A stretch of DNA of 64,000 nucleotides from assembly GCA_043822065.1 (NCBI GenBank), contig JBDRCC010000006.1, forward strand, positions 16,578 to 80,577. The letters run 5' to 3'. The notes below the pieces were generated by a model. That model had not been told where the DNA came from and searched no databases. It saw nothing but the letters and a program-made list of their open reading frames with translations. This document shows, piece after piece, positions 23,138-64,000 of this stretch. The first letter of the stretch is position 1, and each line of letters starts with the position of its first letter. Made by a program: the position numbers and the translations under genes. Source of the DNA: an archaeon (GTDB lineage: Archaea; Undinarchaeota; CAZHTU01; JBDRCC01).

Positions 23138-23177
23138 CGGCTTTCCTAAGAATCAGGGATATAAATAGATTTACTCA

Positions 23178-23227
23178 AACAAAAAGCGAGAGGCGGCAGT
23201 TCCCCGAATAAATGGGGCTTACTACAC
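23178..23227 (+). repeat. rnpB-3'-end-derived repeat R1
   Basis: CGAGAGGCGGCAGTTCCCCGAATAAATGGGGCTTACTACAC; core 23195-23224. Confidence 0.9.
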
Positions 23228-23250
23228 AAAAATACTTCTTCTGGATAAAA

Positions 23251-24209: not shown

Positions 24210-24211
24210 CT

Positions 24212-24249
24212 GTTATAAAATAGTAACAAGTGTTATATAAACCTAACGG
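24212..24249 (-). promoter_or_regulatory. TATA promoter overlapped by two TGTTA-N8-TAAC inverted repeats (putative autoregulatory operators)
   Basis: TGTTATAAAATAGTAACA and TGTTATATAAACCTAACG; TTTATATA on the minus strand. Confidence 0.6.
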
Positions 24250-24263
24250 TTGAAGTAACACGA

Positions 24264-24323
24264 GCTCCCGTTGCATGCGAGAGTAAACGGGGGCAGTTCC
24301 CAAATAAATGGGGCTTACTATAC
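24264..24323 (+). repeat. rnpB-3'-end-derived repeat R2
   Basis: GCTCCCGTTGCATGCGAGAGTAAACGGGGGCAGTTCCCAAATAAATGGGGCTTACTATAC. Confidence 0.9.
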
Positions 24324-24382
24324 ACTCGCAGAGGGCGATTAACTAACAGTCCAAATCCATTCCTTGTTGTTTTTATTTCACC

Positions 24383-24928
24383 TCAATCGAAGTAGTTTTC
24401 AGGTTTTAGTCTTTCTGCGGCAGCTGTTTGTTCCTTTTTCATTCTTCTGATGTTTTTTCTGCCAATCTCTTTTATACCATCTTTCATTAACTCTTCATAG
24501 CCCTCCGTGTCAAGTTCGAGGTAGCAAAGTCTGCCATCATAGGCAACAATTCTATATCCTAACTTAAGGTGCAGAAAAGTAGAAGCGTCGAAGTCCTCGG
24601 TCTCTCTTTTGACTTTGGATACGGCAGCTATGACTCTGCGAACTCCATATTTCCCATATAGGCATTTTAGAACTTGGAATTCAAAGGACTGACCACAGCG
24701 TCTCCCCTTGAATTTTATGTGCAGCCCATGGATAAATGCAATGTTCCCGTCTAGGGTACACATTATCTCTCCGACTTGATTTTCTTCGTTGTGCTTGCCC
24801 TTCTCATAAAACAAAAACTGAATAGTTTTTGTAAGGCCCTTTCGACAATAAGGATAGTCTACTGGGAAGGGGCGCTGGTACATAATCAAAAGCATTCTTT
24901 CCTTGGAGTTTATTTTTATCTCTTCCAT
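24383..24928 (-). CDS. Hypothetical protein, possibly GNAT-like fold
   Basis: AFIHGLHIKFKGRRCG...LGYRIV resembles GNAT motifs A/B; AT-rich. Confidence 0.55.
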   Translation of the reverse strand: MEEIKINSKERMLLIMYQRPFPVDYPYCRKGLTKTIQFLFYEKGKHNEENQVGEIMCTLDGNIAFIHGLHIKFKGRRCGQSFEFQVLKCLYGKYGVRRVIAAVSKVKRETEDFDASTFLHLKLGYRIVAYDGRLCYLELDTEGYEELMKDGIKEIGRKNIRRMKKEQTAAAERLKPENYFD

Positions 24929-25087
24929 CTTATATCAATGCCCTTCCTGCTCCACATCGCATCATTTTTGAGCATGACTTTTCTGATGCTTTCTCCTTAT
25001 AAAAATGTAAGCGCCGGGCGCGGGAGCATAACCAGCAGTTCAAACCACATAATTGATACGAAACAGTAAGCCGGTAAAATGAGCTTA

Positions 25088-25429
25088 CTAACCTGCTAAC
25101 AGCTTTACTACCTCTAGCACAATTATTACTGGTAGCAAATAGAAAACAATACTGCCCAAAACAATATGCCCAATCAACGACTTAATCAGGAGTATTCCAG
25201 CAATCAGCCCTACTGCTACTGCTGGCAGTCCGATTGGCGACATTCCGTGGTGGACAACATGGATTACTTGTGCAAGTATTAGCAGCATGCCCAACGCCCA
25301 CAGCGCTGCTATGTTCGGAGTCGCACTTGAAATGTGGACCTTGAAAATCAGGCCAGCAAGTATTACCAAAAGAGTTGACGGAAGCACACATACTGGGTCT
25401 ATATGGCCCCTATTTGACATTTTAAACAT
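25088..25429 (-). CDS. Small His-containing 4-TM membrane protein
   Basis: Hydrophobic segments with GH and HVVHHG; divergent from the Fur gene. Confidence 0.65.
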   Translation of the reverse strand: MFKMSNRGHIDPVCVLPSTLLVILAGLIFKVHISSATPNIAALWALGMLLILAQVIHVVHHGMSPIGLPAVAVGLIAGILLIKSLIGHIVLGSIVFYLLPVIIVLEVVKLLAG

Positions 25430-25460
25430 AAGTTCAATTTGTCAGATATATTTAAATATG

Positions 25461-25483
25461 TTATTGATTTCCATTATCAATAA
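25461..25483. promoter_or_regulatory. Fur/Zur-box-like operator
   Basis: Perfect 8-7-8 inverted repeat TTATTGAT-TTCCATT-ATCAATAA between a TATA (TTTAAATA) and the fur start. Confidence 0.7.
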
Positions 25484-25487
25484 GCAA

Positions 25488-25856
25488 ATGCCAAGAAAAA
25501 CTAGGCAGAAAGAGCTCCTCCTGTCAGAGGTGGAAAAACTTGATGTCATCTTCTCTGCAGATGACCTGTTCAAGCTGGCTAGGGAAAAGGACACAAAGAT
25601 TGGGATTGCAACGGTATACCGCTTTCTTAGAAACCTAATGGCAAAGCAGCAGCTCCATTCCTACCTATGCAACCGGCGCATGGTATACTCCAAGGATATG
25701 AACAGCCACTGCCACTTTATATGCCAAAAATGCGGAAAAGTTGCTCACTTCAAAGTTGAGGATATCGGATTTATAAAAGAGAAAATAGACGGCCAGCTCT
25801 GCCATTTCCAGATAGATGTGCACGGGCTCTGCAGAGGCTGTCTAAAAGCCGAGTAG
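25488..25856 (+). CDS. Fur/Zur family metalloregulator
   Basis: IGIATVYRFL, HCHFICQKCG, HGLCRGC. ATG at 25488. Confidence 0.9.
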   Translation: MPRKTRQKELLLSEVEKLDVIFSADDLFKLAREKDTKIGIATVYRFLRNLMAKQQLHSYLCNRRMVYSKDMNSHCHFICQKCGKVAHFKVEDIGFIKEKIDGQLCHFQIDVHGLCRGCLKAE

Positions 25857-25870
25857 ATATTTTTTGCATG

Positions 25871-25940
25871 GCAAGCCCCTTAGCATGTGAAAGTAAAATC
25901 GAGAGGGGGCAGTCCCCCGACTAAATGGGGCTTACTATAC
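25871..25940 (+). repeat. rnpB-3'-end-derived repeat R3 (longest copy)
   Basis: GCAAGCCCCTTAGCATGTGAAAGTAAAATCGAGAGGGGGCAGTCCCCCGACTAAATGGGGCTTACTATAC. Confidence 0.92.
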
Positions 25941-25961
25941 AAATCCTTAACGACATGAAGA

Positions 25962-26507
25962 TTATTCTCCAGATTCGGTTAGAAGAGCATCAATTTTATC
26001 TACGAAATCATTTGCGTCCTTTACCAATAAATCTGCTGCCTCTCTTTCTATCCCCACTTCAGCCGAGTACTGCGCAGTTTCCCTTTCCCTCCTTGCTCGC
26101 CGGAGCTTCATGACATACTCTTCTTCAAGTTTTTTCGCCTCTCTCAGCGTCTCAAGGTGCTTCTTCTCCAGCAGCCCTTTTCTGACATAATAGCACTCGA
26201 GGGCCATACTCGTAGCGGCATGATTCTTGCTCCAGAAACCCAATTTACCTATCGCCGCTAAAGCGGCATGGTACATGGCGTAGTAGGAACAGACGACAAC
26301 CCAGTCGTTAGCTTTGAAATCGTGAAGCTTGAGAATATCCTGCGCATTCTTAGACTTGTCCAGCAATCTTAGAACCTTTGCAACCAACAGATTATGTCTT
26401 GCTTTTTCTATGTGGTTTGGAACTAACCTCGCAATGTGAAATCCTTTTCCGAACGTACCTTCTTCTTCAAACTTCCTAAGTTTTTTCTTAAGCTCTTCCG
26501 CTTTCAT
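25962..26507 (-). CDS. HEPN-domain protein
   Basis: DWVVVCSYYAMYHAALA, SKNH, RRERETAQY. Confidence 0.87.
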   Translation of the reverse strand: MKAEELKKKLRKFEEEGTFGKGFHIARLVPNHIEKARHNLLVAKVLRLLDKSKNAQDILKLHDFKANDWVVVCSYYAMYHAALAAIGKLGFWSKNHAATSMALECYYVRKGLLEKKHLETLREAKKLEEEYVMKLRRARRERETAQYSAEVGIEREAADLLVKDANDFVDKIDALLTESGE

Positions 26508-27127
26508 AACTTCACCTCGAACACAATATCCCAAAATCTCTTATGGCCAAAAATAATTATGCCATCTGTCAACGCTTCGGTACCGACAGTGGATGTTTCA
26601 GAGGCAAGCATTTTTTTCATACTTTCCAAATCTGCGACAACAGTCGAAATACTCTTGCCATAGCGCATCTCTATAGTACTTGCAATTCTATCAACCACCC
26701 CCTTATCCTTTAACGAGGACGATAGAGTGAGCAAATCAATATCACTTCTTTCGGTTCCCCCCCCTCTCGCATATGAGCCAAACAACACAACAGACTGTAG
26801 TCGTTCGCCAAGTTCTTCTTTAACGCCTGATAAAAATTCGTCAACTATTTTCCCTGCACTTGACTTTCTCCCAAAGAGCTCCTCCCGCTCTTCTTCCGTG
26901 AGGAGGGACAGATAAGTCTTAGTTTTTTCAGTGTCCTTCAAGCCAATTTCATACGCCTTTCCAACTCTATTCTTCCCAAGGACCCCTTCCGCGACCAAAG
27001 AGTTAACATGCCGGTGCGTCGGCTCATATGATAATCCAATTCTTTCCGAAAGTTCGCGGATAGTGTAAGTCGCACCAATGTCCCTTCTGTAAGCTTTCAA
27101 TACTCTAAAGATGTTTTCTAACTTCAT
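26504..27127 (-). CDS. wHTH-minimal nucleotidyltransferase
   Basis: TIRELSERIGLSY HTH; LFGSYARG...SDIDL. ATG at 27127. Confidence 0.88.
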   Translation of the reverse strand: MKLENIFRVLKAYRRDIGATYTIRELSERIGLSYEPTHRHVNSLVAEGVLGKNRVGKAYEIGLKDTEKTKTYLSLLTEEEREELFGRKSSAGKIVDEFLSGVKEELGERLQSVVLFGSYARGGGTERSDIDLLTLSSSLKDKGVVDRIASTIEMRYGKSISTVVADLESMKKMLASETSTVGTEALTDGIIIFGHKRFWDIVFEVKL

Positions 27128-27164
27128 ATTGGATTTTCCAATAATGTTATTGGATTTCCAAATA
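27127..27164. promoter_or_regulatory. Tandem operator palindromes upstream of the MNT gene
   Basis: TATTGGA-TTT-TCCAATA plus a second near-copy TATTGGATTTCCAAATA overlapping the TATA. Confidence 0.65.
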
Positions 27165-27182
27165 TAAACTTTTCGCTCCATG

Positions 27183-27219
27183 AAATCAAGGGGCAGTTCC
27201 CCGAACAAATGGGGCTTAC
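27183..27219 (+). repeat. rnpB-3'-end-derived repeat R4
   Basis: AAATCAAGGGGCAGTTCCCCGAACAAATGGGGCTTAC. Confidence 0.9.
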
Positions 27220-27246
27220 CTAACAGTCAAAGTCCATCTGCCGGAT

Positions 27247-36140: not shown

Positions 36141-36998
36141 GTGAAAACCTCGCACCACATCTACTTCAAAGACGCGTCCTGCATGGAGGATGTCCCTGAC
36201 GAAAGCGTCAACTTGGTAATTACCTCCCCACCTTATCCCATGATTGAGATGTGGGACGATATGTTCACCAAGGCAGACCCGGCGATAGGCTCGCTCTTCC
36301 GCTCCCTCGAGTCGAGCCAGTCTGAGGATGACGTCTCAAAAATCTACTCGCGCATGCACCTGTATCTTGGCAAGGTGTGGAGCGAGTGCTTCCGCGTCCT
36401 TGCGAACGGCGGGATTGCATGCATCAACATCGGCGACGCCACGAGAAACATCAACGGAAACTACCGCCTTTTCCCAAACCATTCGAGAATACTTCACGCA
36501 TTCGACAACCTTGGCTTCATCACCCTGCCTTATGTCCTCTGGAGCAAGCCGACAAACAAGCCGAACGCGTTCCTTGGCTCAGGCTTCCTGCCGCCGAATG
36601 CCTATGTCACAGTTGATGCGGAGTACATCCTGATATTCCGCAAGGGCGGGCTGCGCCATTTTACGCCCCACCATAGGATACGGTATGCCAGCAAGTTCAC
36701 AAAAGCAGAGCGGGACACTTGGTTCAGCCAGATATGGACGCTGAAGGGGGCAAAACAGCAGAATCCAGCCATCCTGCGCAGGACTGGCGCCTACCCCCAG
36801 GAGATATCCGACCGCCTCGTGAAGATGTTTTCAATAGCCGGCGACACCATCCTCGACCCATTTCTGGGCACAGGCACGACAATCAAAAGCGCGATAGCCC
36901 ACGGCCGCAGCTCAATCGGCTACGAAATAGACAAGTCGCTCAAGCCAGTGATAAAGCAAAAGCTCGGAATCAGCGCAGAAGTCGGCCTCTCGGATTGA
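36141..36998 (+). CDS. Orphan beta-class DNA methyltransferase (SPPY, likely m4C)
   Basis: LVITSPPY precedes LDPFLGTGTT; no adjacent endonuclease recognised. Confidence 0.9.
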   Translation: MKTSHHIYFKDASCMEDVPDESVNLVITSPPYPMIEMWDDMFTKADPAIGSLFRSLESSQSEDDVSKIYSRMHLYLGKVWSECFRVLANGGIACINIGDATRNINGNYRLFPNHSRILHAFDNLGFITLPYVLWSKPTNKPNAFLGSGFLPPNAYVTVDAEYILIFRKGGLRHFTPHHRIRYASKFTKAERDTWFSQIWTLKGAKQQNPAILRRTGAYPQEISDRLVKMFSIAGDTILDPFLGTGTTIKSAIAHGRSSIGYEIDKSLKPVIKQKLGISAEVGLSD

Positions 36999-37028
36999 TT
37001 TTTATATCCTGCCTGCCATAGATAGGAT

Positions 37029-37664
37029 ATGACGCGGATAAAGCACGGCGGAGTCATCGTCGAGCACTATGCCTTTGACTACAACGAGCCGAACGGCGAC
37101 GAGAAAAAGTTTCTGCTGCGCAAGGCTGCGCTCCTAGAACTGCTCCTCCAGAACTTCTATTCGACAAAGGGCATCTTTCCACACATTCCAGTCCAGGGCC
37201 CGATAAGCTTCGAGACAATGCTGCAAACCAACGACGACGAATTCATCAAGCGCCTTATATTCGACCACACCCTTCGCGGCGGGAGCATGGGGAAGTACTG
37301 CGACGAGGCATGGCTCCTCTACTACAAGGGAAAAGTCGCCGGCTTCTCTTCGATAATAACTAACTGGTACAACTATCCAGACACCTGCGAGCGTGCCAGC
37401 CACGACTTTCCAAAAGCTACGAAGGGCTTCAGGCTCGCAGACCACGCAATGGTCCTCGACATCTGCGTGCACCCGGATTATGCGGGTATCGGGCTCGGCA
37501 CTGCCCTGCTTGATGCAGTATTCCACAGGATAAAGCTCCTTAAAAGAAAGCCCGTCGCATATATCCGCGAAGGCCTGAAGTCCAAAGGGCTGTTCGAGAA
37601 GGCAGGCGGGAAAATAAAGGAAAGCGACTCTGAAAACGGCTTGTTCACAGTCTGCTTCCAGTAG
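37029..37664 (+). CDS. GNAT family acetyltransferase
   Basis: DICVHPDYAGIGLGTALL. Confidence 0.8.
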   Translation: MTRIKHGGVIVEHYAFDYNEPNGDEKKFLLRKAALLELLLQNFYSTKGIFPHIPVQGPISFETMLQTNDDEFIKRLIFDHTLRGGSMGKYCDEAWLLYYKGKVAGFSSIITNWYNYPDTCERASHDFPKATKGFRLADHAMVLDICVHPDYAGIGLGTALLDAVFHRIKLLKRKPVAYIREGLKSKGLFEKAGGKIKESDSENGLFTVCFQ

Positions 37665-51741: not shown

Positions 51742-52772
51742 TTCATTTCCTCCAGAGCCGCGACCAGCCTCTTGTTCTGCTCCTCAGTCCCGACGCTTAT
51801 CCGGATGTACTCCTTTTCAAATCCTCTCAGCTTCCCGTATTTGCGGATTGATATCCCCTTTGCCATCAGCCGCAAGGAAATTCCCTTCGCGTCATCGACC
51901 TGGACGAACACGAAGTTCCCGCCGGACGGGTATGCCTTGAGCCCAAGCCGCTTTAGCTCCCTTTCAAGATACGTTCTCCCGCCCTTCACGGCCCTGACAG
52001 TCTTTTGGATAAACTCATCGTCCTCCAGCGCGCCAGCCGCCGCCCTCTGGGCGTACTCGTTGACGCTGTACGGCAGGCGGACCTTGTACATCTGCCCTAC
52101 CACTTTCTCAGAGGCAATCGCGTACCCGACCCTCGCCCCAGCCAAGCCATAATCTTTTCCAAGGGACCGCGCAATTATGACATTGTCATACTCATCGACA
52201 AGCTCCGAAGCGCCGCACCCGGCGAACAGGTAATACGTCTCGTCCACGATGAGGGCGTTCGCCTTTTCCGCTATTTTCCTCAGGTCGCCCATGCCGACCA
52301 CCGTCCCTGTCGGGTTGTTCGGGTTGCAGACGACTGCCAGCTTCGTTTTATCCGAGATGGCATCGAGATAGCGCCCCGCGTCGAAGCTGAAGCCCTTCCC
52401 CAATGGGACCTCTGCCAGCTTCAATTCCCTCACTTCCGCCAGCTGCCTGTAAATCGGGAAAGTCGGGTACTGCGTGACCAGCCCGTCGCCCTCGCCGCAG
52501 AAGACCTGGAACAGTATCTGCAGGATGTCGTCGCAGCCGTTCCCGACGATTAGCCTCTTCTCTTCAATGCCAAGCTTCTTAGCCAGGGCCGCCCTCAGTT
52601 TCCTGCACTCGACGTCGGGGTAAAGCGCCAGGCTCCCGACGCCTTTCGCAGCCTCAATCGCCCTCCTGCTCGTCCCGAGGGGGTTCTCGTTGTTCGAAAG
52701 CCTGACGACGTCCCTCCTCTCCGAGCCGCCGATGTACGGCGTTATCCTCTCGATGTTTTTCCTGAACTTCAT
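51738..52772 (-). CDS. hisC: Histidinol-phosphate aminotransferase
   Basis: LSNNENP, GNGCDD, CNPNNPTG, DETY, RSLGKDYGLAGARVG. True start at 52772 (ATGA overlap). Confidence 0.93.
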   Translation of the reverse strand: MKFRKNIERITPYIGGSERRDVVRLSNNENPLGTSRRAIEAAKGVGSLALYPDVECRKLRAALAKKLGIEEKRLIVGNGCDDILQILFQVFCGEGDGLVTQYPTFPIYRQLAEVRELKLAEVPLGKGFSFDAGRYLDAISDKTKLAVVCNPNNPTGTVVGMGDLRKIAEKANALIVDETYYLFAGCGASELVDEYDNVIIARSLGKDYGLAGARVGYAIASEKVVGQMYKVRLPYSVNEYAQRAAAGALEDDEFIQKTVRAVKGGRTYLERELKRLGLKAYPSGGNFVFVQVDDAKGISLRLMAKGISIRKYGKLRGFEKEYIRISVGTEEQNKRLVAALEEMK

Positions 52773-54016
52773 TTCAGCCTCTCCCATACCGACCTTGCGT
52801 GCTCCGGCAGCCCTTCGGCGTCCGCCAGCGTCACAATCGCCCTCCCAATCCTGTTCAAGCCCTCCTTCGATACCTTCTGCCAGGTCACCTTCTTCAGGAA
52901 CATATCGACCGACACCCCTGAGCAGAACTTCGCCCCCCCGCCGGTCGGGAGGATGTGGTTCGTGCCTGAGCAGTAGTCCCCAGCCGCGACCGGGCTGTAC
53001 TCGCCGACGAAAATCGAGCCTGCGTTCCTTATCCTGCCGAGGATGTCCTTCCGGCACACTATCTCCAGGTGCTCCGGCGCATACCTGTTAGCGAACTTCA
53101 CTGCGTCGTCGATGGACTTGACTATGAGGATGTAGCTGTACCTCTCAAGCGACTTCTCGAGCATGTCCCTCCTCGGGCTCTCCCTGACCAGCTCGTCCAC
53201 CCTCCTGCCCACCCTTTCCGCCAGGTTCCTGTCCGGCGTGACCAGGACAGCAGCCGAGTCCGGGCCGTGCTCCGCCTGGGCGAGAAGGTCGCACGCGATA
53301 AAGTCCGGGTTCGCCGAGTTGTCCGCGATAATCAATACCTCGCTCGGTCCCGCGAAGAAGTCAATCCCCACCGGCACCATCCCCTTCGCGGCTGAGACGT
53401 AGACGTTCCCCGGGCCGACTATCTTGTCAACCTTGGGGACGGTTTCCGTGCCGTACGCCATCGCGCCAATCGCCTGCACTCCGCCCACTGCAAAGACCCT
53501 GTCCGCGCCGGCAATCTCGCACGCCGCAAGCGTTACGTCGTTGACCTTCCCGTCGGAGTTCGGCGGGGTGCAGACGATGACCTCCTCCACGCCGGCGACC
53601 TTGGCAGGCACGACGCCCATCAGGACTGTCGAGGGGTAGAACGCCCTCCCGCCCGGGACGTAGCACCCGACCCTCCTCAGCGGGATTACCTTTGTCCCGA
53701 GCTCGATGCCCTTCTTCCCCATGTAATCAGCTTTAGGCATCTGGACTTCGGCGAAGCTCCTTATGCTCCCTGCCGCAAACCTGAGCGAGTCGAGGATGTC
53801 CTTTGGAATCCGCTTCACGGAGGCTCTTACGTCCTTCCGCCCGACCTCAATGCCAGCAGGCTCCACGCCGTCAAACTTTTGCGTGTATTTCCTCAGGGCG
53901 GAATCGCCGCCCTTTTGGACGTCATCGAGAATGCCTTGGACGCCCTTCTTGATGCCTTCCAAATCCGCGTCCGCCCGCTTCAGGAGCCCGTCGCCTATTT
54001 TCTCGACCACCTTCAT
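52769..54016 (-). CDS. hisD: Histidinol dehydrogenase
   Basis: YVPGG, GPGNVYV, AGPSE, AQAEH, APEHL, GTNHILPT. True start at 54016. Confidence 0.96.
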   Translation of the reverse strand: MKVVEKIGDGLLKRADADLEGIKKGVQGILDDVQKGGDSALRKYTQKFDGVEPAGIEVGRKDVRASVKRIPKDILDSLRFAAGSIRSFAEVQMPKADYMGKKGIELGTKVIPLRRVGCYVPGGRAFYPSTVLMGVVPAKVAGVEEVIVCTPPNSDGKVNDVTLAACEIAGADRVFAVGGVQAIGAMAYGTETVPKVDKIVGPGNVYVSAAKGMVPVGIDFFAGPSEVLIIADNSANPDFIACDLLAQAEHGPDSAAVLVTPDRNLAERVGRRVDELVRESPRRDMLEKSLERYSYILIVKSIDDAVKFANRYAPEHLEIVCRKDILGRIRNAGSIFVGEYSPVAAGDYCSGTNHILPTGGGAKFCSGVSVDMFLKKVTWQKVSKEGLNRIGRAIVTLADAEGLPEHARSVWERLK

Positions 54017-54600
54017 AGCAGCCCCTCCAGCTTCCTTGCGAACGCAGAAGCCTCTTTCCCGTTCCCCCTGGAGACCAGCCTCGCGCTCGACTCCAGCAGG
54101 GTGTCCAAAACGACCAGCCTGTTCTCCATCAGCGTCCTCCCCGAGCTCGTCAGGTCCACGATATAATCCGCCATCCCGAGCCTGATAGTGTTCTCGACCG
54201 CGCCTGAGACCCTCACTATACGCGCTTCGATGCCCTTCTGCCTGAAGTATTTCCTCGCGAGGTTGGGGAAGCTCGTCGCAACCCTCGGCTTCTGCCCAAT
54301 CCCCGCAAGGCTTGAGCCTATCTGCCCCGCCAGCACCAGCCTGCACTTCCCGAAGCCCAGGTCCAGCAGGCTCCTGAGCCTGACGCCGCTCTCCCTTGCC
54401 ACGTCGTAGCCGGTTATACCTAGCTGCGCCGCCCCCTCCTCCAGGACGACGGGCACGTCCTGCGCCCTGACCAGCGCCGCCTCGTAGTTCCCGGCATAGG
54501 AGAAGAGCTTCCTGCCGCTGAAGGAAAACCCCAGCCTCTCGAGCAGCCTCTTCGAAGGCTCGCAAAGCACGCCCTTGTTCGGAATCGCAACCCTAATCAT
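54013..54600 (-). CDS. hisG: ATP phosphoribosyltransferase, short form (195 aa)
   Basis: AIPNKG, RAQDVP, GITGYD, LDLGFGKC, GAVE, IVDLTSSGRTL; AGGTGG RBS; no C-terminal regulatory domain. Confidence 0.93.
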   Translation of the reverse strand: MIRVAIPNKGVLCEPSKRLLERLGFSFSGRKLFSYAGNYEAALVRAQDVPVVLEEGAAQLGITGYDVARESGVRLRSLLDLGFGKCRLVLAGQIGSSLAGIGQKPRVATSFPNLARKYFRQKGIEARIVRVSGAVENTIRLGMADYIVDLTSSGRTLMENRLVVLDTLLESSARLVSRGNGKEASAFARKLEGLL

Positions 54601-54649
54601 AGTACCACCTAACAGTGAACGCAACCACCCGTTTGGTAAAAAAACGAAG

Positions 54650-54721
54650 GGCCGGAGGCGGGAGTCGAACCCGCGTCACCGGATCCACAGTCCGGTAGGA
54701 TACCGCTACCCCACTCCAGCC
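54650..54721 (-). tRNA. tRNA-His(GTG), genomic G-1, CCA not encoded
   Basis: GGCTGGAGTGGGGTAGCGGTATCCTACCGGACTGTGGATCCGGTGACGCGGGTTCGACTCCCGCCTCCGGCC folds as a cloverleaf with G-1:C73. Confidence 0.96.
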
Positions 54722-56562: not shown

Positions 56563-57459
56563 ATGTACCTTAGAATAAATTCGGTTAGCAATGAGATTCG
56601 CTTCAAGGAGAGTATACTAAAGAATTTTAATTACTGGCTAAAGCACAATAATAAATTCGCAGAGTTTTTCAATCCAGCGAAGTGTCATCCACTAACACTA
56701 GATCTGAAACTTGTCAAATTAGTAACCTTCGTATCACGCGATTTAAATATCCCTATCTCATGGAGCTGGTATAAATATGGTCCCGCTGTTGTTAGAACTA
56801 GTAAGATCTCTGTTGAAAGTCTATTGACGTTAGGCAGTTCCAAGGAATTCATTAAAGACATGGGTCCTTCATTTGAGACGAACTATAGCGAGTTTATTAA
56901 ATACCCAGATATTTTCTCTTATCTAAACTTCGTTTACTCTGAAAAAGATGAAAACGAGATGTATCTATCAAAATTACAACTATTTAATGCATTTGATACT
57001 GCAAAATCAAATATATACGGGTCTAAAAAAATAGAGTATGATACCATCTCAGATCTAACCTCTCAATTTCATTTGGATCTACATAGTACTGTTGTCCCAG
57101 ATGATGTTTGTAACGATTTTGAACTACAGAATCTTATTGTGGACTATACAACAATTATGGAGGAGTTAATACTCAAGAATCAGTTTGAACCAAAGAATAC
57201 TGACTCTTACTCGGCGCTTTTAGATAGAACCTACAATGCCTTATGGGACAATGGATGGGAAGCCTATGCGAGTAAGATGTCTATGAATACAATGCGTTCC
57301 TTTTCAGATGAGCAGAAACAGTATCTCATTGATGAAGAGTTTTCCTACTATCCCCTCAAGCTAAAATACGCATCTGACCTTCTTGGGCACTTAAAGCAGG
57401 ATATCGCCAAAGAGAACTTGTCATTAGATGCCTCCGAACGAGAGCAATTGATGACTTGA
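56563..57459 (+). CDS. Panacea/SocA (DUF4065)-like protein, putative antitoxin
   Basis: LKLVKLV...WSWYKYGP resembles the KLxKL...WxxGP signature; strongly AT-rich. Confidence 0.6.
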   Translation: MYLRINSVSNEIRFKESILKNFNYWLKHNNKFAEFFNPAKCHPLTLDLKLVKLVTFVSRDLNIPISWSWYKYGPAVVRTSKISVESLLTLGSSKEFIKDMGPSFETNYSEFIKYPDIFSYLNFVYSEKDENEMYLSKLQLFNAFDTAKSNIYGSKKIEYDTISDLTSQFHLDLHSTVVPDDVCNDFELQNLIVDYTTIMEELILKNQFEPKNTDSYSALLDRTYNALWDNGWEAYASKMSMNTMRSFSDEQKQYLIDEEFSYYPLKLKYASDLLGHLKQDIAKENLSLDASEREQLMT

Positions 57460-57463
57460 GTAT

Positions 57464-58135
57464 ATGAACCACTATTTTGTAGATACGAATATAATCTTCA
57501 GTTATTCACATAAATTTGAGACTACTCATGATTTATCTAATAAATTACTATCCCGTACTAGAGTATATGCTAGTAAGATATCATTCGACGAAGTCAATGC
57601 AGTTAGAAACACAAGAGATAACATTTATAGCCAGTTTGCAAGAGTAGTAAAACAAGCAGCAATTCCAGAACGTGATTTATTCAAAGAGGATGTACTCTTT
57701 AGACTTGTTTCAGATATTATCAAAACAAATAGGCATTATTCTCATTTAGAAGATGTTTTTCGTTATATACTAAAGATAACCTCCTCTGAGACCAAAACAA
57801 AGAAAACATTAGTTAAATACTTTAGAAGAGTGATTAGGGATATCACTCAGAATATCGAGACTGCTCTAGATATCCTAAAACCTCCCATTAGTATTGTTGG
57901 GGATGTGGAACTTGAAACGCAGATTGCTAAATTTATAACTCCTGAAACCGACAGAAAGATAGTCTCTGAAGCCGCCTATTGGTTCCAAAACAACATAAGT
58001 GCTGGAAGGAACAACCATTTTGTAACAAATGACGCTGAACACATCTTGAGTCAAAAATCGAATTTGATTAGAATTGTAGACGGCTATTTCTCAAACAACT
58101 TTAAGTTCCGTTTGGAGCATATACGAGACACCTGA
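57464..58135 (+). CDS. PIN-like domain protein, putative toxin
   Basis: YFVDTNII, DEV, DRKI, FVTND; 4 nt downstream of its partner. Confidence 0.75.
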   Translation: MNHYFVDTNIIFSYSHKFETTHDLSNKLLSRTRVYASKISFDEVNAVRNTRDNIYSQFARVVKQAAIPERDLFKEDVLFRLVSDIIKTNRHYSHLEDVFRYILKITSSETKTKKTLVKYFRRVIRDITQNIETALDILKPPISIVGDVELETQIAKFITPETDRKIVSEAAYWFQNNISAGRNNHFVTNDAEHILSQKSNLIRIVDGYFSNNFKFRLEHIRDT

Positions 58136-58170
58136 ACTATCTTTATGAAAGCTGCCGTTATTCATCCATT

Positions 58171-58284
58171 GGTGTAGTTAGTGTAGTTTGGTGTATGTTC
58201 ACCTACACCAGCATTTTACCTACACCAACCCAATTTCAGGATATGGGGGTGTAGTTTGTGCAGTTAGTGTAGTTTGTGTAGTTA
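58171..58284. repeat. Iteron-like GTGTAGTT(A/T) direct and inverted repeats
   Basis: 3 forward copies, 2 inverted (CCTACACCA), then 4 tandem 9-bp copies. Confidence 0.85.
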
Positions 58285-58619
58285 TGCGGCTTTAAGCCCC
58301 TATAGTGCTATAGTACAGTAGCGGTTTCTTGCGGTTGCACGCCGGTCAAACGCCCGGTCCGGCGCCATTTGCGGATCTTGGCTGCGCAGGTGCGGAAACG
58401 CCTATCATGCGGGCGGAGCCCGCATGAACGTCCCCCCCTGATTATATGGGCAGCTTTGCTGCCCCTCTCTTTTCTATTGTGGCTCGCGGCGCGGGCGGGC
58501 GCCGGCGCTTGGGAAAAACTGGAATTGGCTGGGAAGGGCTCCTATACCTTATCATGCCTGGGTCTGGCGGGCCGCGAAAACTATTTATACTGTAATATAT
58601 AACAGTAATGCAGTGAGAA

Positions 58620-58922
58620 ATGGAAACCGCAACCCTCATCACCTACGACCTGCCCTCTGCCAGCATGTCCCAGGCCAGGATAACCGCCTTCCACCGCAGG
58701 CTCTACGGGTATACGGATTACTCCAACCACGGCAGCTACCACTACGAGCGGAAGGGCCTGCTTTCCGACATTCCGCACCTGAACCCGAGCAGGTCGGTGA
58801 TAATCGTGCCGAAGGACAAGACGGGACCGGTGCTGGCGTTCCTTGAGGAGTGGGGGGCGAAGGTGTTTGCGATAGACGTCATTTTGAACGATAAACAGGC
58901 CGAAGTACTTTCAAAATCTTAG
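58620..58922 (+). CDS. Small Cas2/VapD-like (ferredoxin-fold) protein, copy 1
   Basis: LITYDL...FHRRLYG...SRSVIIV; upstream palindrome TACTGT-AATATATA-ACAGTA. Confidence 0.6.
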   Translation: METATLITYDLPSASMSQARITAFHRRLYGYTDYSNHGSYHYERKGLLSDIPHLNPSRSVIIVPKDKTGPVLAFLEEWGAKVFAIDVILNDKQAEVLSKS

Positions 58923-59021
58923 TGCCCCGAACTGGCAGCGGCCAAAAGGTCAAAATTCACCGTTTCTCGTATCCAGCGCAAAGTTTAAATAAGAAGCAGT
59001 CACTTATCTCATTATCAAGTC

Positions 59022-59061
59022 CCCAGTATGACCCCATCCTTCGGGGTGGGGGAATACTGGG
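59022..59061 (+). ncRNA. Structured 5'-leader hairpin upstream of the NYN gene (putative cis RNA element)
   Basis: CCCAGTAT-GA-CCCCATCC-TTCG-GGGTGGGG-GA-ATACTGGG, about 30 nt after TTTAAATA. Confidence 0.6.
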
Positions 59062-59084
59062 CTGATACTCCTTATCGGATTCTG

Positions 59085-59762
59085 ATGAGCGATAAGCCGA
59101 AGACCAAAGAAGCTGAGAACGCGTTCCTTTTCATAGATGGGAACAATTTCTACCATATATTGAAGTGCCATCAACTGGACGGTCGGCTAAGCGTATCTCC
59201 CGGCGAAATAGACTTCTCAAAGCTTAGCAAGGTAATCTGCGACTTCTTTGGAGTGGAGCATAGCAAAACCATTTACTATAACTCAGTCCCAGATATACGC
59301 GATGGCGAAGAGGCTTATTACAAACATATGCAGTTTTTGGATGACCTGAAGAAGCTACCAAGACTTGAAGTCAAGACCAGAAAGCTGCAAAAGCATTCGA
59401 CCGAGGAGATTCTCAGGTCGCGCCGGAGGAAAATTGGGGATTTGGACTTATGCGGTAAATGCAAACCGCTAATTGAGAAAAATTGTGCAGAATGCATTGG
59501 CGACTTCAAAAAGAAAGAGAAGGGGATCGACGTCATGATAGCGGTTGACATGATTGAGGCAGCGATTAAAGATAAATGCGATTGTTGCATCCTGCTCTCG
59601 GGGGACGCGGATTTTGTTCCGGCGCTCGAGCTGGTTCAAAAGAACGGAAAAAAGGCATTCAGTTCTGCGATGCCTAGAGGCTACTCGACCCTCCTGCGCG
59701 AGAAATTCAAGTTCTTTACGCTTTACCCAGACCTTTTGGAAGAGAACTGTTTGAAAGCTTGA
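59085..59762 (+). CDS. NYN/LabA-DUF88 PIN-like ribonuclease with a Cys4 insert
   Basis: FIDGNNFYH, KEKGIDV, LLSGDADF; CGKC...CAEC insert. Confidence 0.9.
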   Translation: MSDKPKTKEAENAFLFIDGNNFYHILKCHQLDGRLSVSPGEIDFSKLSKVICDFFGVEHSKTIYYNSVPDIRDGEEAYYKHMQFLDDLKKLPRLEVKTRKLQKHSTEEILRSRRRKIGDLDLCGKCKPLIEKNCAECIGDFKKKEKGIDVMIAVDMIEAAIKDKCDCCILLSGDADFVPALELVQKNGKKAFSSAMPRGYSTLLREKFKFFTLYPDLLEENCLKA

Positions 59763-59765
59763 TAA

Positions 59766-59962
59766 GGCGGGCGAAGTACACCTACAAGCGGAAGGGCCTG
59801 CTTTCGGACATCCCGCACCTGAACCCGAGCCGGTCGGTCTTAATAGTACCGAAGGATAAGACGGGACCGGTGCTGGCGTTCCTTGAGGAGTGGGGGGCGA
59901 AGGTGTTTGCGATAGATGTTGTGCTGGATGAAAGCCAAGCTGAAGTCTTTTCAAATGTTTAG
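59766..59962 (+). pseudogene. 3' half of the Cas2-like gene, copy 2
   Basis: Near-identical DNA to the 3' halves of copies 1 and 3; begins 3 nt after the NYN stop. Confidence 0.85.
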
Positions 59963-60111
59963 CTCTTCGGTTCTCTACGTTTTAGCGCATCCAGAACATA
60001 CAGTGGCGATGCCACCCGCGCAAATCTTGGGTAACACTTCGACGAGCGTTTGTTCTAGCATTTCAATCCACCATCATTAACTAATCTTTTGATATTTTTA
60101 ATTATTATTAA

Positions 60112-61437
60112 TTAACTGCTTTCTTTTGTGTAGTAGGCTCCGCGCGTTTTGCCGACTCGTTTTAACAAGCCGCGTTTTATTAGGTCGTTCAGGTCTGAAA
60201 CCGCGATCGGACGCGAGACTGCAACCATTTTTTCGTATGTTTTTGATGTTAATGAATGATTCTTCTCTAAATATGCCAAGGCGCGTTTTTGCCGTTCGTT
60301 GATGTCTATTTCAGCCATGTGGAACTTGTTATACAGGGTTACCCTGAAGTAGCTTCCCAGCTCTTCAAAAACTGGTTCGGGCAAACCCGCTCCTTTCATT
60401 GCGGAACGCATTCGGGGTATGCCTGTTGCGAAGCCTTCTATGAGTTTAAGGTCGCGCAACAAGCGATAGGTTAAGTGATTTCTGGGGACTGAAAGTCTGC
60501 CCAGCAGTTGGATGCTCAATCCTGTTGGCAATGTACCGGGATTTATGAATTCGATTCTGTCGTCAAAAATGTTTACTTGAACGGTATCGCGGCTGAGGTA
60601 ATCCCTGTGGGTAAGCGCATTTAGCAACGCTTCCCGCACGACTGTGAATGGATAGTCCGGCTGCTCTTCTCTTTCTAGTCCTTCTATTTTTAAGGCAGTG
60701 CGCGTGTTTTTCTTTATGAAGTCCTCGGCCTCCCTTAGATTTTCCAAAATGGTGGCGTTGGCGATTCTTGAGTCGATTATATCGACTGGCTGGTCTCCCT
60801 TGAATCGCACGAGCTTTATTTCGTTTTGAGGCAGATATCTGGCCGGTTCTTTGGCGAAGAATAGCACTGCGGTGTTCTTTATCCACAAGTCGCCGTTCTT
60901 GCCCGCCAAACCGAGATTGAGCAGGTACTCTTTAACATTGGCTTCATCAAACGCGACCTCTGGAGAACGTTTCTTTACGAACGCGCGCATCCGATTTACG
61001 TCTAAGTCTTCGAGTTTCGCCTGCGAACGAGATTCATCAAAAGATAGGATGTGCCTGTTAATCAAATAATCCTGAAGGGTCCGCCCTTCGAGTTTCGTGT
61101 TGGTGCTTCCAGCGCGGTAATAGACTATCCCGCCAAAAGTGCAAAATGCCCCCTGCCCTATTTGGTATACTTCGCACACAACTGTTTTCTTTTGTTCTTT
61201 CTCTTCAACAAAAATTTTGTGAAACGGAACCGGAGAGACCTGTTGTATCGAGCCCTCAAGCCTCTGTTGTAATGTGTCAAGCCCATTCACGGGAATTCCG
61301 ATTATCTTACCATCATCCGCTATTCCAACAACTATCTTTCCTCCGGACGCGTTGGCAAATGCGCACACAGTCTGGCTTATGCCCTTAAAGTTATCGACAC
61401 TGCGTTTGAACTCAAGACCTTGGCTTTCGGCATTCAT
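60112..61437 (-). CDS. AlbA_2/Schlafen + HATPase_c_4 + wHTH protein
   Basis: ESQGLEFKRS, CAFANASGG, REALLNALTHRDY, NPGTLP, GIPRM; C-terminal HTH. Confidence 0.9.
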   Translation of the reverse strand: MNAESQGLEFKRSVDNFKGISQTVCAFANASGGKIVVGIADDGKIIGIPVNGLDTLQQRLEGSIQQVSPVPFHKIFVEEKEQKKTVVCEVYQIGQGAFCTFGGIVYYRAGSTNTKLEGRTLQDYLINRHILSFDESRSQAKLEDLDVNRMRAFVKKRSPEVAFDEANVKEYLLNLGLAGKNGDLWIKNTAVLFFAKEPARYLPQNEIKLVRFKGDQPVDIIDSRIANATILENLREAEDFIKKNTRTALKIEGLEREEQPDYPFTVVREALLNALTHRDYLSRDTVQVNIFDDRIEFINPGTLPTGLSIQLLGRLSVPRNHLTYRLLRDLKLIEGFATGIPRMRSAMKGAGLPEPVFEELGSYFRVTLYNKFHMAEIDINERQKRALAYLEKNHSLTSKTYEKMVAVSRPIAVSDLNDLIKRGLLKRVGKTRGAYYTKESS

Positions 61438-61695
61438 AAACAACAACCAATATCATAAAGTATTGTTAGATACTAATACTTAATGATATTTAAAGATATC
61501 GCGCGCTCTGACGCCGTTTTTGCCATTTTTGTTAACTTTGACATTTTCTGTGTTGTCCCGAATTAAGGCTCCTCCCGGATTTTCGATTCATTTCTCCCCC
61601 TAAGTATTTTTCGCCTGGTTCTTCCACATCTTATCCATGAACGCCTGGCCTCAAGGCTCATGTGCGGCCGGCGGAAGGCATAAATACAAGTTTTA

Positions 61696-61711
61696 CGTAA
61701 ATATATTTACG
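61696..61711. promoter_or_regulatory. Perfect 16-bp palindrome upstream of Cas2-like copy 3 (14-bp core repeated at 63778)
   Basis: CGTAAATATATTTACG. Confidence 0.65.
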
Positions 61712-61719
61712 GAAGAAAG

Positions 61720-62028
61720 ATGACACGAAAAACCGCCACCCTGATAGCCTACGACCTCAGCTCCGGCAGCACGTCCAAGCCCCAGGCGCCCCTGTTCCAC
61801 AAGCGGCTGTACGGCTACACCGACAGCTCGCACGGCGGGAAGTACACCTACAAGCGGAAGGGCCTGCTTTCGGACATCCCGCACCTGAACCCGAGCCGGT
61901 CGGTCTTAATAGTACCGAAGGATAAGACGGGACCTGTGCTGACGTTCCTTGAGGAGTATGGGGCGAGGGTGTTTGCGATAGATGTTGTGCTGAACGAAAA
62001 ACAGGTTGTATCGCTTTCAAAAGGTTAG
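61720..62028 (+). CDS. Small Cas2/VapD-like protein, copy 3
   Basis: LIAYDL...FHKRLYG; paralog of 58620-58922. Confidence 0.6.
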   Translation: MTRKTATLIAYDLSSGSTSKPQAPLFHKRLYGYTDSSHGGKYTYKRKGLLSDIPHLNPSRSVLIVPKDKTGPVLTFLEEYGARVFAIDVVLNEKQVVSLSKG

Positions 62029-62185
62029 AAAACTATTTTGGTGTTAGAACTATCTTGTCGTTTTCTATGGTAATATCTTACCTTCTTTATGTTTTTGCAA
62101 TTCGGCAGAGATTTGACCAGTGATTTGGGCAAGGTTATGACATAAGAAAAGTACTCTCTGTTCCGGGTCTTTCGTTTCCGGAGTT

Positions 62186-62983
62186 TTACTCCAGCATCTT
62201 CAAGACTGTCTTTTTGGCGGTTTCTCCTTTGATGCCGAATAGGTCCTTCCAGAGTTCATCCGTGCATTTTTCATCCAGGATACTATCAAGCTTTGCCCCG
62301 CTTTCCGCATCAGGCGAATAAAGGCGCCGTAATTTTTCTTTGTCCATGGGGCGCGGGGAGTAAAGCGATAGTGCAACAATGTCGTACAGGTCCTTTATCT
62401 GTTTATGTTCCCTGTCCCTGTTGATGACGGCGTTGAGCTTCATGGCCAATAAAACCTCGACGGAGGGCAGATAAACTGTTTTGCCGAACATCCCATGCTC
62501 TATCCTGCCGGCAGGACCCGAAAAAACTTTTTCAAGCAGAGGCTCGTCGGCAGGGACGAAACCGAAAGCCTTTGAAAAGTCAGGATGGATTTCACTTACC
62601 ATCAGGTCAACGTATAGGTCGAATATGAACGGCAGCATGGTGGCTTTTGCCTCCTCTCCGGACAGTTCTTTTCCGGTTTCCGTGTGGATTTGCTTCAGCA
62701 GCCTGAAGCCCTGCATTTCAAAACCGAGCTCCCGCTCTAGAACATTCATTGCCTTCGCGAAAGCAGAATTTTCAAGCTCCTGAAAAGACCAGCCTTTTTT
62801 TATACGGAAGCCCAGGTCTATGTCCCGCGAGCCGAGATATTCCCTCCCACGTGCAGATTTGAACCTCTCGTTTACGAGATACCGCACGGCCCAGCCGCCC
62901 ATCAGGCAGATTGGTTCGTCCAGCACATCAAAGACTTCTTTCAGATAACGCTGTGATGTGTCTGTCTCATACCTTTCGTACAT
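62186..62983 (-). CDS. AbiEii-like nucleotidyltransferase toxin
   Basis: LMGGWAV, SRDIDL, MKL...R...KDLYDI. Confidence 0.8.
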   Translation of the reverse strand: MYERYETDTSQRYLKEVFDVLDEPICLMGGWAVRYLVNERFKSARGREYLGSRDIDLGFRIKKGWSFQELENSAFAKAMNVLERELGFEMQGFRLLKQIHTETGKELSGEEAKATMLPFIFDLYVDLMVSEIHPDFSKAFGFVPADEPLLEKVFSGPAGRIEHGMFGKTVYLPSVEVLLAMKLNAVINRDREHKQIKDLYDIVALSLYSPRPMDKEKLRRLYSPDAESGAKLDSILDEKCTDELWKDLFGIKGETAKKTVLKMLE

Positions 62984-63671
62984 TTCCTTCGAAGCCCTCC
63001 CGTTTAATCAACAGCTCTGCCGCTTCCGTACAGGGCCCGCCCTCTGCGAGCAGGTCAAGGATAAGCTGCGGCGCGGAAACCCTTGGCAGGTCCGCAAGTA
63101 AAACCCCCCACTCCCCTTCTTCCGTAACACTCCGGGGCCGCACATTAGCATGTTTATCTACATAACGGAAAATATGGGGGTCAGCATCATACAAAACCCT
63201 AAGATTTCCGCCGCCCCTTACGCCAGCCTCCATGATCAAATCGTGCCAACCCGGCAGGTCTTTTACATAGAGGTCATAGCGTGAAAGAAATAGGTAGTGC
63301 TGGGCTGCACTTTCCGCAGCATATGTCGTTAAGGCGTATTCCAGCTTTTTCTTGCAGGCCTGAGATAAGAGCTTGGCGGGGTCCCTCACATTGTAATCCC
63401 TGTATTTCGGCTTCTTGTGGACTCCAAGCCAGTAGTCAAACAGACCCCTGGCGTTGATAATCTCGGTCCCCTTGATTAGCTTCCTTTCCTCTAATTGCTT
63501 AAGGACTTTATGGGCCCAGCCGTAATAAGTCTCAGCTTCCTTTGCCACCCTGTATTTTGTCAGTTCTGATACTCTATATTCCGCCAAAATGCTTCGGCGG
63601 TTCAGCAACACCCTTATTATCCGTTCTCTTTTCCAGCCTTTCATTTTAATCGAGTGGACATATCTCTTCAA
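62967..63671 (-). CDS. AbiEi-like wHTH antitoxin/regulator
   Basis: N-terminal wHTH; YALT, GGNL, VSAPQLILDL...EAAE; GAGATATATCTC-type palindromes upstream. Confidence 0.75.
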   Translation of the reverse strand: MKRYVHSIKMKGWKRERIIRVLLNRRSILAEYRVSELTKYRVAKEAETYYGWAHKVLKQLEERKLIKGTEIINARGLFDYWLGVHKKPKYRDYNVRDPAKLLSQACKKKLEYALTTYAAESAAQHYLFLSRYDLYVKDLPGWHDLIMEAGVRGGGNLRVLYDADPHIFRYVDKHANVRPRSVTEEGEWGVLLADLPRVSAPQLILDLLAEGGPCTEAAELLIKREGFEGNVRKV

Positions 63672-63777
63672 TTTATATATAGTTTGTGTTAGAGATATAT
63701 CTCCTTAGTATATATACCTTCTTATTTAGAGATATATTGCCTCAAATCGCTGATTTGCGAGACGCCCCTCTGCGCTT

Positions 63778-63852
63778 GTAAATATATTTACGGAAGAAAG
63801 ATGAAGCGAAAAACCGCCACCCTGACAGCCTACGGCCTCAGCTCCAGCAGCA
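63778..63852 (+). pseudogene. Promoter and 5' fragment of the Cas2-like gene, copy 4
   Basis: Matches 61697-61771 (GTAAATATATTTACGGAAGAAAGATGA...AAAACCGCCACCCTGA), then diverges. Confidence 0.85.
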
Positions 63853-63866
63853 GGTTCACCGAGAGG

Positions 63867-64000
63867 TTATACTGATAAGACCATCAACAGAAACACCACT
63901 ATACCAAGAACGAGGATAGCTATGACTGCCAGAGAACAGTAGCCTACAATGTTTGCAACCGTCAGTCTAGTTATTTTATCTCGTTTAGTTATTTTATCTC
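63867..64000 (-). CDS. 3' end of a gene running off the window, with a C-terminal TM helix
   Basis: Translated by eye: ...DKITKRDKITRLTVANIVGYCSLAVIAILVLGIVVFLLMVLSV*. Confidence 0.45.
   Translation of the reverse strand, partial: DKITKRDKITRLTVANIVGYCSLAVIAILVLGIVVFLLMVLSV

Follow-up and report, generated by a model that had tools for sequence, protein, structure and literature searches.

Defence genes and toxin–antitoxin (TA) genes are common cargo of integron cassettes, and in arrays of the IS26 type the copies of the insertion sequence (IS) are common to the adjoining cargo segments. IS1 encodes InsA, a small DNA-binding regulator of the element's own promoter. In the passages of PMC3967940 that deal with orphan rhs-CT/rhsI modules, which lie downstream of the principal rhs gene, a common stretch (522 bp at 95%) acts as a recombination substrate, and homologous exchange through it rearranges the locus. 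The tycheposons of Prochlorococcus, in the part of their description that concerns arrays (bioRxiv 10.1101/2020.12.28.424599), lie at tRNA genes, repeat the partial tRNA and carry tyrosine recombinases; as one insertion follows another, the attachment sequence stays behind, whole or partial, between the units of cargo. Here we analyse a 64-kb stretch of DNA from an Undinarchaeota archaeon (contig JBDRCC010000006.1; "the window", with about 16 kb of the 80,577-bp contig outside it), in which full and partial copies of one small protein-coding gene alternate with defence-type cargo.

We tentatively favour, with a confidence a little short of even, the following explanation: a self-regulating, mobile-element-associated gene whose recombining copies serve as homology tracts for cargo. 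The repeat would be a self-contained gene with its own promoter, encoding a ferredoxin/RRM-like (RNA recognition motif) protein of ~100 residues. This protein would bind, as a homodimer, a palindrome between TATA box and start codon, and so repress its own promoter. Two of the copies, c1 and c3, are intact paralogues of different N-terminal and operator types, and two, c2 and c4, are fragments, all in a variable island beside tRNA-His, with cargo of different base composition between them. The copies have exchanged sequence by homologous recombination or gene conversion. The half copies would result from recombination or deletion between copies, and the homology that the copies provide within the island would allow modules of cargo to be lost, duplicated or swapped.

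Copies of the small gene and recombination among them

The region from 58.6 to 63.9 kb contains exactly four copies or fragments of the gene, each where the preliminary description of this locus had placed it: two are intact, one is a 3' half and one a decayed 5' fragment. A DNA profile built from c1 and c3 matches only these four places in the whole 64 kb, and a protein profile of the family matches c1, c2 and c3 and nothing else in the window. Along the DNA the order is c1, an NYN gene, c2, an AlbA_2/HATPase_c_4 gene, c3, an AbiEii pair and c4. Both c1 (58620-58922, plus strand; 100 aa, N-terminal "type A") and c3 (61720-62028, plus strand; 102 aa, N-terminal "type B") are intact and match the protein profile hidden Markov model at E 2.7e-36 and 2.2e-33, respectively.

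The 3' half c2 (59767-59962, plus strand) has no promoter. Its DNA homology begins at 59766/59773, 4-11 nt downstream of the NYN stop (59760-59762), and ends with the stop codon at 59962. The TTG start of a 67-codon open reading frame (ORF) of c2 overlaps that NYN stop (TTGA, 59759-59762), and a 67-residue C-terminal fragment could therefore arise by translational coupling. At the other end of the array, c4 (63778-63875, plus strand) comprises the right half of the promoter palindrome and a decayed 5' fragment of 24 codons. Its first 81 nt (63778-63858) are 91% identical to 61697-61777 of c3, that is, to the promoter-proximal region and the first codons; beyond 63858 the similarity is weaker, up to the stop at 63873-63875, and decay is visible as a change of YD to YG and an in-frame gap. 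Homology between copies is bounded by the stop codon on the 3' side and by a point ~25 nt before the start on the 5' side; the flanks are not common.

The preliminary description had called the 3' halves nearly identical. This holds for c2 and c3 (90% identity over 197 nt by BLAST, with a perfect run of 96 nt) and for c1 and c2 (87% over 174 nt, perfect run 59 nt), but not for c1 and c3, whose 3' parts agree at 83% by codon; their 5' parts agree at 64%, a divergence as clear as had been said. Over 299 nt, c1 and c3 are 77% identical by BLAST and share no perfect run longer than 19 nt.

Copy c2 is a mosaic: 59773-59868 equals c3 exactly (96 nt), 59858-59916 equals c1 exactly (59 nt), and its tail is unique. 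At the sites where c1 and c3 differ it follows c3 at 13, then c1 at 5, then c3 at 6, and then runs into its own tail. These tracts, which stand in the sequence itself, show recent recombination or gene conversion among the copies, with c2 a c3/c1 chimera; that the copies are substrates of recombination is thus borne out. Since c2 switches several times, a test that assumes one breakpoint did not reach significance (p 0.27).

Close homologues were compared in a set of nine sequences, by their N-terminal 40 and C-terminal 36 residues, and the two parts group incongruently. In the N-terminal part c1 is identical to the Undinarchaeota proteins P0004, P0007 and P0008 at 33-34 of 38 residues and to c3 at 22 of 38; in the C-terminal part it agrees with c3 at 27 of 36 and with P0007 at 19 of 35. 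Likewise, P0004 and P0007 share 40 of 41 N-terminal and 22 of 35 C-terminal residues, and P0003 groups with P0001 by its N part but with P0007 by its C part. Applied to 34 informative columns, a PHI-like test of compatibility (p 0.003, 0.045 and 0.33 for w5, w8 and w12) suggests recombination among these homologues with modest support.

Could the alternation be an assembly artefact, faked by collapsed or mis-joined repeats? The source is probably a metagenome-assembled contig, and the 96-nt tract identical in c2 and c3 could let an assembler swap downstream sequence. However, the copies differ (64-91% outside the identical tracts), their flanks are unique and the fragments abut complete genes. 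Moreover, the switch from c3 to c1 within c2 has an overlap of 11 nt, which is below the usual assembly words; the join must therefore, we infer, exist in the reads. We give this explanation scarcely any chance.

The protein family, its promoter palindrome and a predicted dimer

A word-seeded search returned 14 proteins, among them two from the window itself, one from an "archaeon" metagenome-assembled genome (MAG) and three paralogues from one Undinarchaeota MAG; some close homologues lie on contigs of 572-2050 bp. A profile search of 1.84 billion representatives, with clusters defined at 50% identity, gave 419 clusters with E<=1e-3, of which 199 reach E<=1e-10, mostly archaeal and nearly all of ~100 aa. 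The ESM Atlas returned only unnamed, mostly archaeal clusters, and no fused longer forms were found among 8000 candidates, which is weak evidence. One ORF of 195 aa, P0086, fuses the initial 64 residues of a family member with an apparent internal piece of a class I aminoacyl-tRNA synthetase (an identity read from its sequence); this would be a chimeric contig or else an insertion within a gene of the host.

The AlphaFold model (AF2; mean predicted local distance difference test score, pLDDT, 89) runs strand 1, helix 1, strands 2-3, short helix, strands 4-5, helix 2, strand 6, helix 3. Foldseek found no match at E<=1e-3 in the PDB or BFVD. The weak PDB matches are type II-A Cas2 chains (E 0.06-0.2, probability 0.66-0.89, TM 0.41-0.52), mixed with CutA1 and PII; in BFVD, fragments of RNA-dependent RNA polymerase (RdRp) palms appear at E>=0.014. 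Weak matches to CutA1, PII, Cas2 and RdRp palms together therefore indicate a generic ferredoxin/RRM-like fold only. The protein is a member of an unnamed, mainly archaeal family of ~100 residues, and by its model appears to have that fold. The invariant core of the family is the hairpin of strands 2 and 3, with G32, S37, Y42, Y44, R46 and G48.

The preliminary description had filed the protein with Cas2/VapD. Under this alternative the gene would encode a ribonuclease toxin of that type, or a common partner of the neighbouring defence genes. The two do resemble each other in size, in the modelled beta-alpha-beta-beta-alpha-beta core, in the hydrophobic first strand and in the predicted dimer. 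Cas2 chains are also the most consistent of the weak structural hits (5zyf_C, probability 0.89, TM 0.44/0.52; 5xvp_F, probability 0.84), and c1 stands upstream of the NYN gene on the same strand. Against this, nothing in Pfam, NCBIfam or PADLOC matches c1, c2 or c3 at E<=0.1, and 108 aligned relatives agree on no Pfam family: one of the 108 touches PaaX_M, a Cas2-like domain (E 0.028), and one CRISPR_Cas2 (E 0.13), both far below the cut-off. The family profile reaches a best E of 0.15 against PDB sequences, and in hhalign its probability against E. coli Cas2 and PaaX is below 1%, a weak test with single-sequence templates.

The acidic residue at the end of strand 1 is the metal-binding Asp of Cas2. 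The Asp behind the earlier Cas2 idea, which follows strand 1 (D12 in c3), shows no conservation across the 108 members of the window family (most frequent residues T 0.19, K 0.18, S 0.18); the conserved motif lies instead in the strand 2-strand 3 hairpin, and the modelled dimer would pack via strands 1, 4/5 and 6.

Genomic context differs as well, with neither the cas1 or CRISPR array that would accompany Cas2 nor the VapX-like partner that would accompany VapD beside the copies. As had been stated before, cas1, CRISPR arrays and transposases are absent: no Cas1, recombinase or transposase family was matched among 66 window ORFs scanned (43 ORFs at E<=1e-8, plus 12, plus 11; the ORF at 52769-54565 lies outside the scan), and no CRISPR-like repeat family was found in the window. 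Nor does the gene look like a partner of its neighbours, which differ at each copy: the cargo by c3 and c4 is convergent or divergent and not co-transcribed, and AbiE is a complete pair by itself. The Cas2/VapD filing was dropped on three counts, namely the missing profile match, the lack of a structural match at E<=1e-3 and the unconserved strand-1 Asp; toxin and partner readings alike retain a very slim chance.

What the preliminary description did not contain is the conserved promoter palindrome, which is new here. Upstream of both intact copies a palindrome, taken as a putative operator, lies between a TATA-like box and the start codon. That of c1 (58588-58607) has 20 nt, TACTGTAA-TATA-TAACAGTA, a quality reached by 1 of 300 shuffles; that of c3 (61693-61714) has 22 nt with the core CGTAAATATATTTACG and was reached by none of 300. 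Neither recurs elsewhere in the 64 kb at <=3 mismatches. Arms of at least 10 nt (<=1 mismatch) occur in 7 of 10 upstream regions of family genes, as against 2.3-7.7% of random 90-nt windows. The distant relatives with a palindrome come from bins labelled Aenigmatarchaeota, Woesearchaeota, Saccharibacteria, Nanohaloarchaea and Bacteroidota, and family members of different phyla have a half-site in common, TAC-T/G-G/T-A/T-A.

A homodimer model of the protein scored 0.65, against 0.00 for the best of three controls. Of 30 proteins whose solved structure is a pair of one chain, 20 came up to the dimer mark, and of 23 with a single-chain structure, 1 did; these counts are only a rough calibration, since the modelling used the analysis' own alignment. 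Contacts agreed between runs to at least 96%, with a partner pLDDT of at least 81. The modelled interface is formed by strands 1, 4/5 and 6 and would leave the basic helix 1 and the conserved hairpin exposed.

A conserved palindrome in the gene's own promoter and a predicted homodimer are what an autoregulated dimeric DNA binder would present. We thus predict that the protein probably binds DNA as a homodimer and so represses the promoter of its own gene. Copies c1 and c3 differ most in helix 1 and in the segment before it, and their palindromes differ too; this would fit two specificities, and can equally be mere linkage.

Relatives in insertion sequences and the question of integration

A scan of species-representative genomes gave seven further loci, L001 to L007, at 31-42% identity to the window copies. 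In three of them (L004, L005 and L006) the gene is part of an IS5-family insertion sequence and is enclosed by its terminal inverted repeats. This link to mobile DNA in other genomes, shown by those three loci, was absent from the preliminary description. L004 and L005 are the same 1.36-kb element (88-92% identical; terminal inverted repeat 17/17 nt in L004), in which a DDE_Tnp_1/IS5-family transposase and the small gene are divergent, the palindrome lies in the 46-nt spacer between them, and the stop of the small gene is inside the right terminal repeat. L006 is a different element of the same kind: its 33-nt repeat agrees at 85%, and a direct repeat of 9 bp flanks it on both sides. In L002 the small gene is divergent from a WYL-domain gene; in L001, L003 and L007 no mobile gene adjoins it.

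Two side observations belong to these loci. An IS200-like element (Y1_Tnp, 1.7e-25) is nested at 2004-2599 of L004 in the IS5-family transposase gene, and at 347-667 of L007, a Hadarchaeota contig, an in-frame stop (521-523) splits the family gene, probably a pseudogene by its sequence.

The window copies might accordingly be relics of IS5-family elements whose transposase parts were lost or replaced, the island having been built by IS-mediated capture of cargo. Beyond the three IS-borne loci, a recurring layout speaks for this: minus-strand gene, palindrome, plus-strand small gene, as in AlbA/c3, AbiE/c4, the WYL locus and the three IS loci. Many close homologues also lie on the short contigs mentioned above, as for repeats. 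However, transposase and terminal repeats are present in L004, L005 and L006 but not with the window copies: tblastn with the L005 transposase returned nothing from the window at E<=1, and no terminal repeats above background surround the window modules, the best pair (60068-60092 and 62017-62041) agreeing at 72% over 25 nt, like many chance pairs. Inter-copy homology also stops at the gene's own limits, with the flanks unshared, and the IS-borne relatives are distant from the window copies (31-42% identical). We consider such an origin decidedly unlikely.

The small gene had further been described as an integration target or homology anchor. As a site-specific target, it would receive circular cargo at a fixed site within itself by means of a recombinase encoded elsewhere; specifically, the 4.1 kb from 59767 to 63872 (c2, the AlbA gene, c3, the AbiE pair and c4) would have entered as a circle, with the crossover at the heptamer TGATAAG. 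This heptamer is found exactly at both fragment junctions. At J1 (59760-59766, plus strand) it consists of the NYN stop and 4 nt more, with the c2 homology directly after; at J2 (63873-63879, plus strand) it stands directly after the last codons of c4. The window has seven occurrences on both strands, close to the chance level of 6.6, and for two junctions to share a 7-mer at the break the chance is ~0.002-0.01 by hand calculation.

More can be said for such integration. The resemblance of c3 to c4 at its 5' end (91%) and to c2 at its 3' end (96 nt identical), like the order 3' half ... 5' fragment, is the outcome of a circle integrating through a site in its own gene, and the array adjoins a tRNA gene. 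In addition, among ten C-terminal-only fragments fetched from the best 150 family hits, three (P0113, P0130 and P0100) share with c2 a start at the (G)KY position. These fragments may, however, be contig-edge truncations.

Several results run the other way: despite the 7-nt core at both junctions, the scanned ORFs include no integrase, recombinase or transposase family; c4 and c2 rejoined at the heptamer give no open gene, with ~7 codons missing and stops at the joint; at the presumed empty site, the convergent gene downstream of c4 would lack its stop; and the presumed circle has no replication gene. The gene is also single-copy in unrelated neighbourhoods at all seven distant loci, which counts against an integration target. 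We think this alternative unlikely.

The two halves of the earlier proposal therefore part company. As a homology anchor the gene is partly supported, by the recombining copies; as an integration target it finds no backing in a window without a recognised recombinase, in the single-copy relatives (7 of 7) or in the break points of c2 and c4, which differ, and dedicated integration machinery is unproven. The half-copies with one common breakpoint that had been predicted may be represented by three of the ten C-terminal fragments, but c2 and c4 do not share one.

Beside the junctions we record an exact 8-mer, CCTTATCA, at 58547-58554 (plus strand), which together with its reverse complement at 59760-59767 brackets c1 and the NYN gene. 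There are three exact copies in the window (rough chance estimate ~0.05), and c3 and c4 have a related CTTATC motif 80-90 nt upstream.

A further possibility, to which we give a slim chance, would combine palindrome and heptamer. The protein would be the DNA-recognition part of a cassette exchange, binding the palindrome at its own 5' end, and a recombinase or transposase acting in trans would capture and release small circles at the in-gene TGATAAG core. If true, this would be an archaeal counterpart of integron and IS26-type arrays, with the IS5-borne relatives as the autonomous form.

To return to the self-regulating gene with recombining copies that we favour, a number of observations weigh against it. 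Three of the ten upstream regions have no strong palindrome (c4 reaches 8, L006 7 and L007 8), and in the count of palindromes neither c3 and c4 nor L004 and L005 are independent. No DNA-binding family was matched by any of the 108 relatives, and the fold search gave no significant match. The PHI-like signal is gone at the widest window (w12). TGATAAG at both junctions is unexplained by simple recombination between copies. The blank tblastn search and the lack of terminal repeats loosen the tie to mobile elements, and the neighbourhood survey consists of the seven distant loci, with close relatives (65-78% identity) outside it. Finally, the gap in composition between copies and cargo described below could stem from expression level rather than origin.

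Cargo, island setting and comparison with known systems

Of the cargo labels given previously, NYN, AlbA-HATPase and AbiEii stand by their Pfam matches. The NYN/LabA-like gene (59085-59762, plus strand; Pfam NYN 6e-16) is open from 59028, whereas the protein as modelled in the database (225 aa) begins at 59085. A search at E<=1e-5 gave 512 relatives of it; those that carry a name are from DPANN archaea, at ~50% identity. Its C-terminus is native: 10 of 10 aligned homologues end at the same CLK motif or at most 3 residues off. Locus-tag adjacency via these homologues gave no informative neighbour names.

The SLFN_AlbA_2 and HATPase_c_4 gene (60112-61446, minus strand; 444 aa; Pfam 1e-18 and 4e-22) also matches a PADLOC pAgo-associated region model (1.4e-28); the winged helix-turn-helix tail ascribed to it is weak (E 0.05). 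A separate palindrome (61449-61490, 16-nt arms, 94% complementary), probably an operator of this gene's own, lies directly upstream of its start.

The AbiEii-family nucleotidyltransferase gene (62186-62983, minus strand) matches Pfam AbiEii at 7e-07 and seven PADLOC AbiEii models. Its upstream partner (62967-63671, minus strand; 234 aa) has no match in Pfam, NCBIfam or PADLOC, AbiEi models included, and is AbiEi-like by position only, a label that rests solely on the 17-nt overlap with AbiEii. Beyond c4, the 3' end of a convergent gene (63867-64000, minus strand) encodes a hydrophobic C-terminus and runs off the window; its stop codon is inside the c4 remnant.

The variable island that holds the array begins after the his operon, which ends at 54624 (HisG by Pfam), and tRNA-His (54649-54720, minus strand; ARAGORN, Rfam tRNA 61.3 bits), its left border. 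Around it, the remaining window is ordinary archaeal chromosome, with a tRNA-intron endonuclease, RuBisCO large chain, POR and his genes. G+C content at third codon positions (GC3) is 0.68-0.78 in the copies and 0.52-0.58 in the cargo, compared with a mean of 0.69 (sd 0.08) in 34 long ORFs outside islands: the copies are host-like or higher, the cargo lower. Rfam found only the tRNA in 54-64 kb, the GC-rich spacer at 58290-58600 folds with z = -0.15, which points to no structured RNA, and a search for tRNA-His fragments as attachment (att) repeats found none.

Elsewhere in the island, two adjacent genes at 56563-58135 have very low GC (0.34-0.36; GC3 0.31-0.39) and no family assignment, the second having only a weak PIN-like N-terminus (E 0.011); by composition the pair is clearly foreign. 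Between this pair and c1 lies an iteron-like cluster (58169-58285) of 9-nt direct repeats (GTGTAGTT + A/T), with inverted copies (CTACACC) in its middle.

Three further regions of the window deserve mention. A second repeat-structured island of low GC (0.41-0.45) at 23177-27227, presumably the other accordion-type array implied by the preliminary description, has two pairs of HEPN and winged helix-turn-helix-nucleotidyltransferase (MNT-type) genes. One pair spans 23251-24209 and the other 25962-27208, and after each comes a 54-nt repeat (copies at 23177, 25890 and 27174; 61-87% identical). An 1829-aa surface-type protein (11901-17390; Big_9, cadherin-like, CARDB) has internal repeats of ~561 nt. 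At 36141-37664 an N6/N4 DNA methylase gene (1.5e-36) and a subsequent 211-aa gene of no family may, by their sequence, form a small restriction-modification pair.

How defence genes are gained and shuffled in small, reduced archaeal genomes is poorly known, and recognisable integrases are often absent. The present locus is a concrete and testable case: a short gene, predicted to be self-regulating and IS-borne elsewhere, whose recombining copies bracket defence-type cargo. If the copies mediate the exchange of cargo, a mechanism anchored in a protein gene would be added to those anchored in tRNA genes, attC sites and insertion sequences. Independently of this, a broad uncharacterised family (419 clusters) is defined here, with a predicted operator and a predicted dimer. 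A limited search of the literature on archaeal insertion sequences, Undinarchaeota defence and IS passenger genes found no description of the family or of the arrangement.

In common with IS26-type arrays, a repeat borne by mobile elements stands between cargo segments, and, as with InsA, a small protein is predicted to bind DNA at its own promoter. Unlike IS26, the window copies lack transposase and terminal repeats, and the IS link is confined to distant relatives. Integron arrays offer another parallel, in that promoter-less or self-contained cargo genes are set apart by a recurring element. Here, however, this element is a 300-nt coding gene that ends at its stop codon, not a folded attC; the orientation of cargo is mixed, and the 66 scanned ORFs include no IntI-like or other integrase family.

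By analogy, and as far as the consulted parts of both sources describe them, the locus would work most like orphan rhs arrays and tRNA-anchored tycheposon arrays. In the rhs arrays, too, variable modules come after fragments of one conserved coding sequence, and the common stretch recombines (PMC3967940), there with the main gene, here over 96 + 59 nt. There the variable part is described as the in-frame tip of the same protein together with an immunity gene (PMC3967940), whereas our cargo is made up of separate genes, unrelated and on either strand, and the repeat, in an archaeal host, is a whole small gene of predicted regulatory type that carries its own promoter. Tycheposons differ from our array in that here the repeat is a protein-coding gene, no recombinase is seen in the scanned ORFs and no tRNA-His fragment is repeated. 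In the portion of their description at hand, they share with it the island beside a tRNA gene and the full and partial copies of a repeat, with degenerate remnants, between stretches of cargo (bioRxiv 10.1101/2020.12.28.424599).

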